Origin: a bacterium
GTDB lineage: Bacteria; Bacillota; Clostridia; TANB77; RGIG9151
Direction: 5' to 3'
Length of the DNA stretch: 64,000 nucleotides
NCBI GenBank assembly: GCA_963635575.1
Contig: CAVHFU010000001.1
Coordinates: forward strand, 54,720 to 118,719
Translations under genes and position numbers: made by a program
Shown here: piece after piece, positions 40,707 through 47,348 of the stretch
How the letters are laid out: each line of letters starts with the position of its first letter
Position numbering within the stretch: the stretch's first letter is position 1
Notes under the pieces: generated by a model
What the model was told of the DNA's origin: nothing
Seen by the model: only the letters and a program-made list of their open reading frames with translations
The model's database searches: none

Positions 40707-41408
40707 TCATAGCATCTCAATATCTATATCATCCAAATCTGCGAAAATTTCAGCATTAGCCTTATCGTCACTCATTACTTCTTCCTTAACACCATTCACT
40801 ATAAACTCCTTTAAGTCAATCTTCATTCCACCAAAAAACAATATTCCATCCTGTATTTTAGAAAAATCATCATATCCGGGAAGAGTCTTGCACATTTTAA
40901 CCTTTTCCTCTAAACATAAATCATTATTAACTCTATTTACTTTCGCAAAATAGGTGACCATAACATTTTTAATTATCCCAGAACGATATTTTATATATGA
41001 TGTAAGTTTATCTTCAGGAATAGAAAAACACTTCCCATGCCAAAAAATTTTTCTATGTGCATCAAAATGATTAAAATAATCAAAAAAATACTGAGAAAAT
41101 AGCGCAATCAATTCCTGTGAATGTGTTGTCTTATCATTTGGCTCTAAGTCCTCAATTACAACATTCGGATTCGGTACAATAAAACTAATTTCATCAGAAC
41201 CAAAAATAGCATAGCAATGATATTTTTCAGTAAAAAATCTCGCTGTCTTTTCTAAACAATCAAAAAAACTACCATCATACTCATCAAGCAAATTAATATC
41301 CTTATTTTTAGTAATTTGCCTGCCGTCAAACCTAAACACCAACGGCATTTTGGTACTTATTCGCATATTGTATTTTTTCTGTAGCTGAAAAAAATAGCTA
41401 TTCCACAT
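40707..41408 (-). CDS. tRNA(His) guanylyltransferase (Thg1)-like protein
   Basis: MPLVFRFDGRQI resembles the Thg1 hallmark (R-x-D-G-R-x-F). About 233 aa. Start taken at MWNS with AAAGGAG RBS. Confidence 0.6.
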   Translation of the reverse strand: MWNSYFFQLQKKYNMRISTKMPLVFRFDGRQITKNKDINLLDEYDGSFFDCLEKTARFFTEKYHCYAIFGSDEISFIVPNPNVVIEDLEPNDKTTHSQELIALFSQYFFDYFNHFDAHRKIFWHGKCFSIPEDKLTSYIKYRSGIIKNVMVTYFAKVNRVNNDLCLEEKVKMCKTLPGYDDFSKIQDGILFFGGMKIDLKEFIVNGVKEEVMSDDKANAEIFADLDDIDIEML

Positions 41409-41453
41409 ACACATTTCTCCTTTAATTTTGCATGGAACGTTCCGCATATAAGT

Positions 41454-42436: not shown

Positions 42437-43549
42437 TTATAGTTTATCTATAATCCCCTTTAACTCATTTACGCAATAATTAACATCATCCTTAGTCGTC
42501 AAATCGCACAAACTAAACCTTATTGTACCACCAATTTCCTCCTTACTAAGTCCAATAGCCGATAAAACATGGCTCTCACCAAATCTATTAGAATGACAAG
42601 CAGAGCCGGTCGAAACATATATACCCCTTTCCTCCAGCGCATGCATAATGACCTCGCCCCTCTTTCCTACAAAAGAAACACTAAGAATATGAGGTGCCAA
42701 GTTTCCGTCATTATAGCAATTTATTTTAGCACAAGGTATACTGCTCACACCATCTTTCAATATATCCCTTAACTCTCTTACCCTCTCGTAATCTCCGCAA
42801 TGTTCAATAGCCTTGCCAAGCGAAGCAATTCCCACAACATTCTCCGTACCACTTCTAAAACCATTTTCATGTCCACCGCCAAGCATATACGGATTAATTT
42901 TAGTTCCCTTCTTTACAACCAAAGCCCCGATTCCCTTTAATGCATGAACCTTATGGCCACTAACACTAATTAAATCAGCCATATTAAACCTGTTATATGA
43001 TAACTTTGTATATGCCTGAACCGCATCAGTATGCAAAATAAAGTTATACTTTTTCTTAAGTTTCGCAATCTCAGAAATAGGCTCTATACTTCCAAGTTCA
43101 TTATTAACAGTCATAACACTAACAAAAATAGTCTTATCATTAATAGAGTTTTTAAGTTGTTGCATATCTATAATGCCATTTTTATCAACATCAAGATAAG
43201 TAACATTAAAACCTTCCTTTTCTAATTTCTCAAAACACATTAAAACAGCCGGATGCTCAATCTTAGAAGTAATAATATGATTTCCCCTTCTAGAATTAGC
43301 ATAAACAGAACCAAAAATAGCTGTATTATCCGACTCGGTAGCACCAGAAGTAAAATATACCTCATTCGTATTAACCCCTAAAGACTTAGCTATAACTTCT
43401 CTTGCATTCTTAACCACTCTCTCGGCTTGCAAACCGATAGAATGTAGAGAAGAGGGATTGCCATAAACATTTTCAGATATGTACCCAATCTCCTCAATAA
43501 CCTCCGGTAATAACCTTGTAGTAGACGCATTATCTAAATAAACTTCCAT
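42437..43549 (-). CDS. Cysteine desulfurase (NifS/IscS, aminotransferase class V)
   Basis: YLDNASTT, PLP-lysine SVSGHKVHALKGIGAL, and GSAC active-site cysteine (SGSACHS). Confidence 0.85.
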   Translation of the reverse strand: MEVYLDNASTTRLLPEVIEEIGYISENVYGNPSSLHSIGLQAERVVKNAREVIAKSLGVNTNEVYFTSGATESDNTAIFGSVYANSRRGNHIITSKIEHPAVLMCFEKLEKEGFNVTYLDVDKNGIIDMQQLKNSINDKTIFVSVMTVNNELGSIEPISEIAKLKKKYNFILHTDAVQAYTKLSYNRFNMADLISVSGHKVHALKGIGALVVKKGTKINPYMLGGGHENGFRSGTENVVGIASLGKAIEHCGDYERVRELRDILKDGVSSIPCAKINCYNDGNLAPHILSVSFVGKRGEVIMHALEERGIYVSTGSACHSNRFGESHVLSAIGLSKEEIGGTIRFSLCDLTTKDDVNYCVNELKGIIDKL

Positions 43550-43575
43550 AAAAAACCTCCATTAAACTATACCAT

Positions 43576-43648
43576 CCTATCTATCGCATCAGAAACAATA
43601 ACATATAAATCCTGAAGCGTTATAACATCGTACATTGTCTTGACATTA
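43576..43648. repeat. 73-bp direct repeat, copy 1 (orphan copy of the 3' end of the 45252..47339 gene)
   Basis: Identical over 73 nt to 45261-45333 (CCTATCTATCGCATCAGAAACAATAACATATAAATCCTGAAGCGTTATAACATCGTACATTGTCTTGACATTA). Confidence 0.7.
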
Positions 43649-43659
43649 GTGACACTCTA

Positions 43660-44496
43660 TCAGCCATATAGATTCAATATCATCTCCGATATTGTTTTTA
43701 TAACTTCGGAATATTGGATATTCCCCACGAAATAATTTTTGCTTTTAAATTGATTCCACATATTTTCCATCTCTTTACTTGTAGCTAAATTTTTAAGTTC
43801 TGTATCCACTTTTTCTTTCGAGAATATAGTCCCTCGTTTTTTACATGTCGAATCAAATGCCTCTCTATAAATATTCCATGAAAAGTCTAGTTTTTGGGCA
43901 ATTTCATATAAGTCATAAAAATCTCTCATTCTTGTATTTGCCAACCCTCGGCTTATAATTGTTTGAGATTTTTCAGCAAGAAGAGTCTCAATGTTATATG
44001 TATTTAAGGATATATTTCTTTCTTCAAACATTAAAGGATATTTATACTCTATTGCACCCATCGTAATAACATCATCCGTTGATACATCTATCTTTATAGG
44101 TTGTTTTAAATCTCCAAGCAATGCCTCTAAATGAATACGAATCCCAGGATAATCAAATTCATCCATGATTGTTTCTATATCTACAATTCTGAATGATATG
44201 TTATCTTCTACTGTTATTTCACATATTTCTAGTATTATTTCTCCCAATTTTTCTTTCGAAAGAGGAAGTGCTCTTACCGTAGCATCAATATCCATTGTTG
44301 TTCTTAAGTTTATTCCAATAAGTGAGGATACTAGCATCCCACCTTTAAGTACAAACCTTTCCTTATATTTTGATAATGAAATTCGTTCTAAAAAGCGTTC
44401 CATAAAAAATATTCTTATCATAGCTTGTGCTATCTTACTATCACCTTTAGAAATGTTCCTTACCTTTGCTTTAAGTCCGATAGCAGATTTTATCAT
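43660..44496 (-). CDS. AbiEii/AbiGii-family nucleotidyltransferase toxin (type IV TA / abortive infection)
   Basis: FVLKGGMLVSSL...RTTMDIDATV matches the GG...R-x-S/T-x-D-h-D nucleotidyltransferase motif of the AbiEii family. Overlaps the upstream partner by 4 nt. Confidence 0.7.
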   Translation of the reverse strand: MIKSAIGLKAKVRNISKGDSKIAQAMIRIFFMERFLERISLSKYKERFVLKGGMLVSSLIGINLRTTMDIDATVRALPLSKEKLGEIILEICEITVEDNISFRIVDIETIMDEFDYPGIRIHLEALLGDLKQPIKIDVSTDDVITMGAIEYKYPLMFEERNISLNTYNIETLLAEKSQTIISRGLANTRMRDFYDLYEIAQKLDFSWNIYREAFDSTCKKRGTIFSKEKVDTELKNLATSKEMENMWNQFKSKNYFVGNIQYSEVIKTISEMILNLYG

Positions 44497-45086
44497 AGCA
44501 TCACCTCAACATATTTCATTATTTCATCCCTTATTTTTAATTGCTCTCCGTACTGTATAAGTCTCGACATATTCTTTGACTTGTCACGCATGAATGTTTT
44601 CATAGCTGTTTGGAACTGTTGCACTTCAACATTTTTTCTGTTTTTAACAATATCGCAAATGCATCTTTCTTTATTATATGTCCTAACCATATTTCCGTAA
44701 TTTGTTTTAACTTCATCAACACCTAATCGATATATTGACTGTTTTTCCTGATGTATGATCACACCTTTATTTCTCAACCGCGTCTGATTAAAACGTGGGG
44801 GTACAGTAATATAAATATCTGTATACTCTCTGTCTAACATACCTTGCAAATACAAAGCTGTTTCTCCTGAATAAATAATATTCGGATTGCAAACTTGAAG
44901 AATATATAACTCATCCGCCCATGCATCCTGTGAAATGTAAATTCCTTTTGCTACTCTCTCTAAATGATTTTCAAACACAAATTTTGCCAAATATGCTCGT
45001 GAAATACCTGCTTTTTCGACTTGTGCTGTAAATAGATATCCATTATTCTCTTGTAACAATTCACTCATTTGCTCGTATTTATTCAT
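44493..45086 (-). CDS. AbiEi-family antitoxin/transcriptional regulator
   Basis: About 197 aa. N-terminal wHTH-like segment (GYLFTAQVEKAGISRAYLAKFV). Partner position upstream of AbiEii. RBS GGTGGTGA. Confidence 0.65.
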   Translation of the reverse strand: MNKYEQMSELLQENNGYLFTAQVEKAGISRAYLAKFVFENHLERVAKGIYISQDAWADELYILQVCNPNIIYSGETALYLQGMLDREYTDIYITVPPRFNQTRLRNKGVIIHQEKQSIYRLGVDEVKTNYGNMVRTYNKERCICDIVKNRKNVEVQQFQTAMKTFMRDKSKNMSRLIQYGEQLKIRDEIMKYVEVML

Positions 45087-45119
45087 AACTTCACCACCAC
45101 ACTATACAACAGTGTATAT

Positions 45120-45148
45120 ATTGTATTCATTATATACACCATTGTAAA
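45120..45148 (-). promoter_or_regulatory. Promoter of the abiEi-abiEii operon with a downstream inverted-repeat operator
   Basis: Minus strand TTTACA, 17-nt spacer, TACAAT. Inverted repeat TATACAACAGTGTATA (45103-45118) lies between -10 and the start codon. Confidence 0.4.
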
Positions 45149-45251
45149 CTTTTATTTTCCCAACTTATATGCCTTAGCATACTTACTATCAACATATTAT
45201 AACCAATTTAAAATAATACACTCAATCACAATGAGTTAATAACAAATTATT

Positions 45252-47339
45252 TTATACCAACCTATCTATCGCATCAGAAACAATAACATATAAATCCTGA
45301 AGCGTTATAACATCGTACATTGTCTTGACATTAACATTGTCAAAATGTCCATTTGCGCTAGCAATTAAATAAATTTCAAGATCACTAAATTCTTCATCAT
45401 ATTCCCCAAAAAGTTTAGAAATCATCCTTGACATAGTAATCATATTTAGTTCATCATTCGAACTAAAAGCCTTAATATCCTCAATAATTTCCTCTGAAAC
45501 ATCAAGTTTCATTCTCTTAATCATTTGAGTAATGCAAGTAACAGCATTCTTATTAATAGCAATATTATCAAGCTTAAAATCATTATCATATCCACCGGTA
45601 ATAATACCCAAATCAACAAATCTTTCAATCTTATCCTTATTGTATAATCCATTAAAAGGCCCTGGAATATCGTACTCAGGTAAATAAACACCTCGGCTTA
45701 CCAACAACTCGTTTATTTCCTCATTCATTTCAACGCTTCCGATAATACCTCGTGGCGTCACATCATTAAAAATAGAATACATTGAAATAATTCCAACAGA
45801 TTCGCCCATAACCATACCTGTCGGAACAACTCTAGCACTTCCGGCAGCAACAGAGCTAAACGAAGCAGCCTTTCCAACTATGTATAAATTATCGATCTTT
45901 TGAGGAACAGCACACCTATACGGTATAGAATACTGACTAGGAGCCAAAACAACATATCCGTAATTATCCTTGCTTGTCGACTGAATATCCACCGGATAAG
46001 ATCCCATAGCAATCTTATCCGAAAAATTTCTGTTATTAAGTAAATCACTCGCCTGTAAAACATACTCGCCTTGGATATGCCTGGTCTCTCTTACATAAAG
46101 TTCACTTGCAGTTCCAAGTAAGTACGCATTTTGGAAAGAATCAAGTCTTGTCTTTAGGTACTTAACAATATTTTGAGCCTCTCTTGTCCCATAATAAATA
46201 GCATCATTAACACTATTCTCATCTTCAATATTCACATTAAAAATCTGTAATGCGTTAAGTAAAATCGTTCCATCGTTTTGCCTTCCGAAGTTAGGACCTC
46301 TAAGACGCATATTATCAAACTCAGGAGTGTACTTATCATAGCACCATTTACCAAATCCCCAAGCACTATCCTCAGTAACACCACAACCGGTATCCCCTGT
46401 CTCGTCCATATACTTTTTCATATCATCCTTTAGCACTTCCCAGTCAACACCGCCAACCTTAAAGCAAAGCGTCACACACATTATATCATCAGAATTAATA
46501 TCTTCCATACCAACATAATACGGAACACCGGCATTCGCACAAACATCACCATCTTGAGTCGCATCTATAATACGTCTACCGTAGAATTCTTTAAGCACCG
46601 AATTCTCATCAAAAACCCTAATACCGGTAATGGTATTTCCCTCAATAATCGCCTCGCCAAACGAATAATTCTTTCTGTAATCGATATTCGGTTCATTCGC
46701 CACCATATCTTCAAAAATTTTCTTAACCTCATTTACATCAAAAGACTCTTTTCTTCCTTCTCGATTATAAAACTCTTCAAAAATACCCTTAGTAAGTAAT
46801 TCCCCATCTTTAGAATAACTCATATCTAAAGTATTTAGCATCCCAAAAGTAAAAAGTCCGCCAAGTCCATCCTCTTCACTAATTAATAACACCTTTCCGC
46901 CACTTCTCGCAGTGGCAATACTAGCCGCAATTCCTTCCGGATCTCCGCCCATAACTATAACATCATAAAAATTATCTGCATAAAACCTTTTGTGGAAAAA
47001 GCTAATAGGAAAATAAACCTTTCCGTCATCACCTAGAACAGTATTTCCAGCCAAAATATAATCTGCCTTAAAATCCATTTTCCTATCATTTATAAAAAAC
47101 GGATTAATATATGAACCAATCTTTACCTTATTAGTACCAATTTTAAAATAATAATTAGTATTATCAACATTAAAATTAACAATGCTAGAATTAGAATATA
47201 CCAAAACATCAGTATTCCATATCTTTCGAACTGCATCCTCAGATATATACCAAGTATCCTCTATCTTCTTTGTATCCTCCGCAAAAGAAAAACTAAACAT
47301 CATCAAAAAACAAACCAAAACGCTGATAAACTTTTTCAT
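45252..47339 (-). CDS. Secreted FAD-dependent oxidoreductase-family protein (paralog A)
   Basis: Signal peptide MKKFISVLVCFLMMFSFSFA. VIVMGGDPEGIAASIATARSGGKVLLIS is a GxGxxG-like dinucleotide fold. 695 aa. Confidence 0.55.
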   Translation of the reverse strand: MKKFISVLVCFLMMFSFSFAEDTKKIEDTWYISEDAVRKIWNTDVLVYSNSSIVNFNVDNTNYYFKIGTNKVKIGSYINPFFINDRKMDFKADYILAGNTVLGDDGKVYFPISFFHKRFYADNFYDVIVMGGDPEGIAASIATARSGGKVLLISEEDGLGGLFTFGMLNTLDMSYSKDGELLTKGIFEEFYNREGRKESFDVNEVKKIFEDMVANEPNIDYRKNYSFGEAIIEGNTITGIRVFDENSVLKEFYGRRIIDATQDGDVCANAGVPYYVGMEDINSDDIMCVTLCFKVGGVDWEVLKDDMKKYMDETGDTGCGVTEDSAWGFGKWCYDKYTPEFDNMRLRGPNFGRQNDGTILLNALQIFNVNIEDENSVNDAIYYGTREAQNIVKYLKTRLDSFQNAYLLGTASELYVRETRHIQGEYVLQASDLLNNRNFSDKIAMGSYPVDIQSTSKDNYGYVVLAPSQYSIPYRCAVPQKIDNLYIVGKAASFSSVAAGSARVVPTGMVMGESVGIISMYSIFNDVTPRGIIGSVEMNEEINELLVSRGVYLPEYDIPGPFNGLYNKDKIERFVDLGIITGGYDNDFKLDNIAINKNAVTCITQMIKRMKLDVSEEIIEDIKAFSSNDELNMITMSRMISKLFGEYDEEFSDLEIYLIASANGHFDNVNVKTMYDVITLQDLYVIVSDAIDRLV
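45261..45333. repeat. 73-bp direct repeat, copy 2 (in situ 3' end of the oxidoreductase gene)
   Basis: Identical to 43576-43648. Encodes the C-terminal ...LQDLYVIVSDAIDRLV. Confidence 0.7.
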
Positions 47340-47348
47340 TAGTACCTC

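Follow-up and report, generated by a model that had tools for sequence, protein, structure and literature searches.

An AbiE toxin–antitoxin cassette bracketed by a long duplication of a resident gene end in an uncultured Clostridia bacterium

The 64,000-nt stretch of DNA analyzed here, hereafter the window (contig CAVHFU010000001.1 of GenBank assembly GCA_963635575.1, positions 54,720 to 118,719, from a bacterium of the Clostridia), carries a two-gene toxin–antitoxin (TA) cassette of the AbiE family between the genes of a flavin adenine dinucleotide (FAD)-dependent oxidoreductase and a cysteine desulfurase. The 3' end of the oxidoreductase gene lies on both sides of the cassette, and the locus thus raises the question of how the two genes came to be there. 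As we argue below, what is seen is very probably an intact and recently acquired AbiE module, inserted with a duplication of 81-88 nt either by end-independent recombination or through a single crossover. All genes of the cassette region are on the minus strand, and the features of the locus are the following.

45252..47339, minus strand: FAD-dependent oxidoreductase gene (FAD gene), 695 aa (Pfam FAD_oxidored, 6.7e-91); its last 27 codons are duplicated
45246..45333, minus strand: repeat copy R1, functional FAD gene 3' end (...DAIDRLV*), with stop codon and 6 nt (repeat search)
45157..45245, minus strand: AT-rich spacer of about 90 nt between R1 and the cassette unit
45120..45148, minus strand (45148->45120): predicted abiE promoter TTTACA-17-TACAAT (promoter scan; conserved in homologous cassettes)
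45105..45146, no strand assigned: putative AbiEi operator with 16-nt inverted-repeat arms at 45131-45146 and 45105-45120 (repeat search)
44493..45086, minus strand: abiEi, 197 aa, N-terminal winged helix-turn-helix (HTH) and C-terminal antitoxicity domain (Pfam, PADLOC and PDB matches)
43660..44496, minus strand: abiEii, DUF1814 nucleotidyltransferase toxin, 278 aa (Pfam, PADLOC and PDB matches)
43561..43648, minus strand: repeat copy R2, orphan duplicate of the FAD gene 3' end, which would read ...DAIDRMV* (repeat search)
42437..43549, minus strand: cysteine desulfurase (class-V aminotransferase) gene, the downstream neighbor (Pfam Aminotran_5, 4.6e-73)

The duplicated gene end and its site

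The core of the direct repeat (43576-43648 and 45261-45333) is identical at 73 of 73 positions, and a perfect repeat of this length cannot arise by chance in 64 kb. It extends to 81 nt with one mismatch and to 88 nt at 95% identity (base by base, 73 identical, 1 mismatch, 7 identical, 3 mismatches, 4 identical), with a start-to-start spacing of 1685 nt. R2 starts 11 nt past the abiEii stop codon, and the GGAGG-N6-ATG that opens the desulfurase gene follows it without a gap. On its left side the repeat ends sharply, whereas on its right side there are four mismatches in the final 15 nt after 73 perfect positions. Under uniform drift all four would fall there with a chance of about (15/88)^4 = 0.001, and we thus consider the cluster to be a feature of the junction rather than of age.

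An earlier reading of this DNA from its letters and open reading frames (ORFs), the original prediction, had described the 73-bp copy as an orphaned duplicate of the C-terminal codons of the neighboring gene, and the comparison of the two copies agrees with this, in that they are identical over the core and R1 holds the native tail. Indeed, the tail of R1, TTGGTATAAAATAAT, matches the native tails of two relatives (loci L003 and L023). Together with the 6-10 nt that follow its stop codon, R1 looks like the native end of this gene in relatives (TTGGTATAAAATAATT, compared with CTTGTATAAAATAATT in L023), and is thus the resident copy. R1 and R2 share two substitutions (GTCAAG, TACGAT) that are absent from all five relatives aligned. 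Since both copies carry these lineage-specific single-nucleotide polymorphisms (SNPs), R2 must have been copied from the lineage's own allele and not imported with foreign DNA. One copy keeps the FAD gene intact, and the other is a non-functional orphan.

A scan of species-representative genomes found FAD gene orthologs in four metagenome-assembled genomes (MAGs) of uncultured Clostridia / Eubacteriales; orthologs in related Clostridia MAGs are 80-95% identical, and the 90%-identity protein cluster has 32 members. AbiE is absent from the FAD–desulfurase site in all 8 related loci examined (L003, L004 and L023-L029, minus duplicates), and the FAD protein of the close relatives that lack the cassette is 90-95% identical. 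Five of these loci (L003, L023, L027-L029) have a 194-aa membrane-protein ORF between the two genes; in L024-L026 there is a spacer of 133-255 nt, and in the more distant L004 one of 34 nt. Close relatives carry a terminator and a TGGTAGAAT-type promoter (TTGTGGTAGAATATAATG) upstream of the desulfurase gene. The homology of the window to this upstream region begins only at AATGGAGG, which indicates that the native intergenic DNA, desulfurase promoter included, is gone; remnants of the relatives' 194-aa ORF, 209-aa ORF or mscL were not found in the window. Comparison with the relatives shows the cassette to be a recent acquisition in this lineage that replaced the native intergenic region. The original prediction had placed an insertion at the 3' end of the FAD gene. 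The location is right; a simple insertion it is not, with the native intergenic region absent and the resident allele duplicated. Exact-protein look-ups for the cassette and the desulfurase returned one sample only, and did not yield an empty-site strain of the same lineage.

Between the FAD and desulfurase genes, the promoter and terminator scan picked up nothing resembling a terminator on the minus strand. Given this and the loss of the native promoter, the desulfurase gene is probably transcribed from promoters upstream, that is, by read-through from the FAD promoter and from an autorepressed abiE promoter. A TA module wedged into this operon-like array has left a housekeeping desulfurase gene without a promoter of its own.

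The surroundings of the site vary in their own right. The FAD protein varies by strain in its last 2-4 residues (DRLI, DRLV, DRLM, DRLT, DRFDIK and DRLDIK in proteins P0121 and P0241-P0254), and the genes just downstream of it (194-aa membrane ORF, 209-aa ORF, mscL) are variably present in L003 and L023-L029. Because both the C-termini and the downstream genes vary, the FAD–desulfurase–yebC neighborhood is a hotspot of small-gene turnover.

The gene pair and its control region

The original prediction had named the pair AbiEi and AbiEii and had suggested a check against hidden Markov model profiles. AbiEi scored above the cut-offs of Pfam AbiEi_4 (7.5e-8, 32.8 bits; cut-off 25) and AbiEi_3_N (1.9e-6, 28.3 bits; cut-off 26), as did AbiEii for Pfam AbiEii (9.6e-41, 140.7 bits; cut-off 22.5), and the PADLOC models were matched over their full lengths (AbiEi, 3e-61, residues 1-196, end to end; AbiEii, 1.7e-92). 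In the PDB, AbiEi matched 9HLO_A (2.1e-24) and 6Y8Q (4.9e-24 over residues 3-196) at full length and AbiEii matched 9HLO_B (3.9e-42, residues 9-270); 9HLO is the AbiEi:AbiEii heterodimer of Streptococcus agalactiae (bioRxiv 10.64898/2026.01.19.700257). The ORF coordinates bear out the predicted gene order as well, with the antitoxin gene first and an overlap of 4 nt (ATGA) between 44493..45086 and 43660..44496.

The predicted toxin motif is also present, except that R-T-x-D-I-D, as it had been written, is one residue short of the actual RTTMDID. AbiEii carries K-G52-G53-x11-R65-T-T67-M-D69-I-D71, in which the x15 spacing from G-G to D-x-D is DUF1814-specific, as well as K176, R183, R191-D192-F-Y-D195 and R221, so that motifs I-IV are complete. 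By mutagenesis, the residues essential to S. agalactiae AbiEii were found to be G49, R63, D67, D69, K173, R180 and D192 (PMC3985639); a recent preprint adds R220 and the phospho-acceptor T65 (bioRxiv 10.64898/2026.01.19.700257). All of these residues have aligned counterparts here, T67 being that of T65. At the sequence level the cassette has every feature by which AbiE members are recognized, and the gene pair, carried by an uncultured Clostridia bacterium of the gut, is on these grounds a further member of a family that is very common. AbiE is indeed found widely, with 7819 of the candidates scored being homologs at E<=1e-20 and with 636 plasmid records, and plasmid homologs bear the RefSeq name 'AbiEii/AbiGii toxin family'.

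The predicted TTTACA-17-TACAAT promoter was found at 45148->45120. In the AT-rich DNA of the window a match in the promoter scan is in itself weak evidence, because such matches are equally common in shuffled sequence (16 found versus 18.1 expected). Across seven homologous cassettes, the -35 hexamer is invariant and the -10 hexamer reads TAnAAT. An inverted repeat lies over this promoter. Its arms are complementary at 14 of 16 positions and 10 nt apart; the -35 is overlapped by the outer arm, and the two arms frame the -10. When the seven cassettes are compared, 84% of cells are complementary in register, versus 12-55% with the partner slid by 1-3 nt, and one position changes on both sides (T:A in the window, G:C in L033 and L030, A:T in L015). 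The sequence that the original prediction had put forward as the operator is a different matter: the palindrome TATACAACAGTGTATA at 45103-45118 is essentially arm B, and it was rejected as the whole operator, its self-symmetry not being conserved in homologous cassettes. In S. agalactiae, AbiEi binds two 23-bp inverted repeats (IR1 and IR2), 3 bp apart, cooperatively and over the core promoter (PMC7319586). Since the two-arm layout over the core promoter is the same here, autorepression by AbiEi through both arms is the likely function of this element.

By analogy with its homologs, the module would function as follows. The sigma-70-type promoter would drive a bicistronic abiEi-abiEii transcript, and AbiEi would repress this promoter through the two inverted-repeat arms. 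AbiEi would also neutralize AbiEii, which it would bind and whose auto-phosphorylation it would induce at T67, the equivalent of the S. agalactiae site. Judging from S. agalactiae AbiEii and the MenT toxins, free AbiEii, a nucleotidyltransferase of the Pol-beta type, would add pyrimidines to tRNA 3' ends and stop translation, and the resulting growth arrest could serve either abortive-infection defense or addiction to the cassette. In S. agalactiae, binding of AbiEi to AbiEii triggers auto-phosphorylation of the toxin at T65 (bioRxiv 10.64898/2026.01.19.700257), by which the system would count as type VII. The 'type IV' label of the original prediction is thus contested by this 2026 preprint, while the assignment to the AbiE family stands.

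The closest comparison is with S. agalactiae AbiE, which has the antitoxin gene first, a 4-nt overlap, inverted repeats over the promoter and proteins of 196 and 287 aa (197 and 278 aa here). Toxin motifs I-IV and the phospho-acceptor threonine are kept and the matches are full-length (2.1e-24 and 3.9e-42). On the other hand, the proteins are clearly diverged, the operator has 16-nt arms 10 nt apart where S. agalactiae has 23-bp repeats with 3 bp between them, LDR-EY takes the place of TDEIPQY in the antitoxin loop, and the host is an uncultured gut Clostridia bacterium. Lactococcus lactis AbiE and AbiG comprise the same two protein families, with a presumed abortive-infection role in common; they are plasmid-borne and have shown anti-phage phenotypes, whereas the pair described here is chromosomal and lies between housekeeping genes. 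The MenAT systems of Mycobacterium tuberculosis (MenT1/3/4; Rv2827c-Rv2826c) likewise combine a DUF1814 toxin with a COG5340 antitoxin, with toxin control by induced auto-phosphorylation and tRNA acceptor-stem modification as the likely toxic activity, but they are too distant for a sequence match in the PDB search, and the operator of Rv2827c has four inverted repeats.

At the DNA level, a 1.5-kb unit made up of promoter, operator and both genes (45159->43655, minus strand) recurs in four other chromosomal contexts at 80-84% nt identity. Its boundaries are sharp in all five contexts, the window included (45152-45159 to 43655-43665), and the homology spans from about 70 nt upstream of the abiEi start to the abiEii stop codon. 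The nearest AbiEii in a collection of 5.8 billion proteins is 84% identical. Searches for cassette DNA in plasmids and phages gave no meaningful match, and at the protein level only distant homologs (35-44% identity at the top). Exact-pattern scans of JGI metagenome contigs for the repeat core and spacer were negative, and homologs of the spacer, which contains a second promoter-like site (TTGAGT-18-TATAAT), were found neither in any fetched locus nor in the JGI metagenomes.

Two further observations concern these homologous cassettes. In L021/L022 (1953-2486, 5864-6484), ATC_hydrolase genes of opposing orientation flank the cassette, and additional HTH and GNAT genes are present, which suggests a rearrangement or an inverted duplication. 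Moreover, in short-read assemblies the contigs that bear homologs of the AbiEii subfamily are in many cases only about 1.6-2.1 kb long, and such assemblies could often break at cassette borders, owing to repeats or strain variation.

Routes of insertion

A search of the whole window for repeats brought to light a second TA cassette, 16 kb from the first, which bears on how the AbiE module was inserted. It consists of the following features.

60961..62474, minus strand: second TA cassette with 64-nt direct repeats at 60961-61024 and 62411-62474 (3 mismatches)
61938..62354, minus strand: HTH gene, 138 aa (HTH_26, 2.4e-7)
61041..61937, minus strand: HipA_C kinase gene (Pfam HipA_C, 2.3e-11)

The HTH and HipA_C genes are, from their sequences, a predicted HipBA-like TA pair. 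The 64-nt repeat comprises the last 5 codons of a 414-aa membrane-protein ORF (59732..60976) and a bidirectional terminator shared with truB. In two relatives (L039 and L040, 91% identical in the 414-aa protein) the site is empty; it has a single terminator, and the convergent genes are 53 nt apart. The window thus holds two TA cassettes within 64 kb, each bracketed by a site duplication of 64-88 nt, and at neither site have the flanking genes lost their ends. Terminal inverted repeats in the two inserts were not above shuffled background, and the inserts share no termini.

We consider that the AbiE cassette would most likely have been inserted by illegitimate recombination, independent of the ends of the incoming DNA, in which the target was duplicated in a staggered manner and the native spacer was lost. 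This is favored because there is no recombinase gene among the ORFs scanned, no defined end and no shared target, and because the duplicated DNA is the host allele. Integrase or transposase genes were not found between the repeats, nor among the ORFs covered by the Pfam scan (24 of the 47 of at least 150 aa, and the 138-aa HTH ORF). The lack of terminal inverted repeats and the duplications of 64 and 81-88 nt do not fit a transposon or insertion sequence; those generated by transposases are far shorter than 64-88 nt. A span of 64-88 bp corresponds to about 6-8 helical turns, far longer than any transposase footprint, and one may ask whether in this Clostridia lineage a dedicated trans-acting machinery or a regular repair pathway inserts such end-less, recombinase-less TA cassettes with a target duplication of this size, as opposed to two accidents that TA addiction preserved. 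We hold this to be doubtful; if true, gene cassettes would here be integrated in a way not described before, one that preserves the flanking gene or terminator on both sides.

The main alternative to end-independent insertion is a circle, carrying the cassette and one copy of the FAD gene 3' end, that integrated by a single RecA-dependent crossover of the Campbell type; such an element could then pass between close relatives by leaving the chromosome and integrating anew through host recombination alone. An arrangement of repeat, insert and repeat with 73 nt of perfect identity is exactly the product of such an event, the Logan assembly graph described below is compatible with a circle of 1685 bp, and a repeat of 64-81 nt may, we assume, be long enough for RecA-dependent recombination. 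It would however need an earlier step that made a circle with host sequence, it explains neither why the native intergenic region and promoter are gone nor why mismatches cluster at one repeat end, and a second locus or a free copy of the cassette was found in no collection searched. We therefore regard this route as unlikely, if the foremost of the competing explanations. A cis-mobilisable remnant of a site-specific integrative element, whose attL and attR would be the repeats, whose tyrosine or serine integrase would lie elsewhere and which would have brought a replacement gene 3' end, accounts for the location at a gene end, for the direct repeats and for a reading frame restored by one copy; the FAD C-terminal residues that vary between strains, as they would at a recombination hotspot, also speak for it. 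Elements such as those of the ICESt1/ICESt3 family, whose target is fda, enter the 3' end of a protein-coding gene and leave it intact, with cargo flanked by direct repeats. Unlike ICESt1/ICESt3-type and cis-mobilisable elements, the locus has no integrase among the ORFs scanned, and its repeats derive from the resident allele. With lineage-unique SNPs in both copies, attP would need to stem from this very strain; what is duplicated around the second cassette is a terminator, unrelated in sequence, and the inserts have no end sequence in common; and the cassette unit occurs in four other contexts without repeats. Such an element is thus very improbable here. The site can also be compared with the minimal mobile elements of Neisseria, in which alternative whole-gene cassettes without mobility genes occupy a fixed site between conserved genes and are swapped through double crossovers within conserved flanking DNA, leaving no duplication. 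The alternatives at the present site (a 194-aa ORF, nothing, or AbiE) are reminiscent of this, but one flank is duplicated over 81-88 nt.

The contig is metagenome-derived, and the FAD gene could in reality be joined to the desulfurase gene, the cassette of another strain or molecule having been threaded in by the assembly. As noted above, the exact proteins come from one sample; moreover, the Logan contigs of run SRR13434665, an independent assembly with k=31, stop 30 nt inside each repeat copy because the true repeat is longer than k, so that the graph collapses the 73-nt core and presents the cassette as a separate contig of 1672 bp. Both junctions (cassette end to repeat, and repeat to spacer) are nevertheless present in this same assembly. 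The ends of the repeat differ (T/A, AAA/GTT), as they would for two physical copies, the repeats of the second cassette differ at 3 internal positions, which graph collapse cannot explain, and ordinary 150-nt reads span a repeat of 81 nt. An artefact is accordingly less probable still than the integrative element. At the bottom of the scale we place the idea that the module is a decaying or domesticated remnant devoid of toxin activity, for example a regulator with an inactive nucleotidyltransferase. Chromosomal TA copies are often inactive, and the antitoxin loop differs from the DEI triad of S. agalactiae. Against this, both ORFs are of full length relative to profiles and solved structures, all residues whose mutation abolishes toxicity in S. 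agalactiae are kept, and homologs of 79-84% identity persist as intact pairs of 197 and 278 aa in many genomes.

Several points weigh against an intact, functional AbiE module inserted with duplication of its target. The concentration of all four mismatches in the final 15 nt of the repeat, versus none in the first 73, fits no simple model. Around the cassettes in other contexts, flanking duplications were not above shuffled controls (exact 11-mers and local alignment); the duplication is therefore no general signature of the cassette's mobility. The covariation of the operator arms, measured on seven sequences only, did not exceed that of shuffled controls either. Of the antitoxin loop D85-E86-I87, essential in S. 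agalactiae, only part is kept (D85-R86, with the loop 2 residues shorter). We infer toxicity, neutralization, DNA binding and phage defense from homologs of at most about 40% identity, and since S. agalactiae AbiE gave E. coli no protection against 32 coliphages, a role in defense is not guaranteed.

Retention of the cassette after end-independent insertion is probably linked to the penalty that follows the loss of a TA module. Inserts bracketed by repeats would be prone to deletion by recombination between the flanking copies; that both repeat-flanked inserts are TA modules, although the repeats should promote their precise loss, fits the idea that addiction shields them from repeat-mediated deletion. 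As a TA or defense gene pair, the cassette adds nothing new, AbiE being common. The insertion is more useful than the genes themselves, in that it was caught early, with occupied, alternative and empty sites in close relatives. The long site duplications are the sole unexpected feature and, as things stand, are not enough to define a novel type of element.

Other features of the window

The FAD gene is the downstream member of a tandem pair of paralogs (695 and 654 aa; 45252-49313), of which the second, at 47349..49313, lies 10 nt upstream. The two are about 71-74% identical at the nt level over long stretches, have signal-peptide-like N-termini and remain paired in all relatives. On the other side of the cassette, a gene of the YebC family follows that of the desulfurase. 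The rest of the window holds genes for housekeeping and cell-surface proteins; Rfam families and tRNAs were not found in it. Base composition was ruled out as a marker of foreign origin for the cassette (31% G+C, compared with 34% across the window).

The ORF at 40707-41447, three genes downstream of abiEii and its flanking repeat, gives a sub-threshold match to Thg1, a tRNA-His guanylyltransferase (25.4 bits versus a cut-off of 29.2). It is kept in relatives, and its closeness to a toxin family with a proposed tRNA-modifying activity is probably a coincidence. Finally, we note a tandem array of about 10 or more copies of a 12-nt repeat at 57096-57253 (TTGGCGAAGRRS-like on the plus strand), which lies inside a gene for a 1274-aa surface protein (53992..57816) with Flg_new_2 / Listeria-Bacteroides repeat domains.

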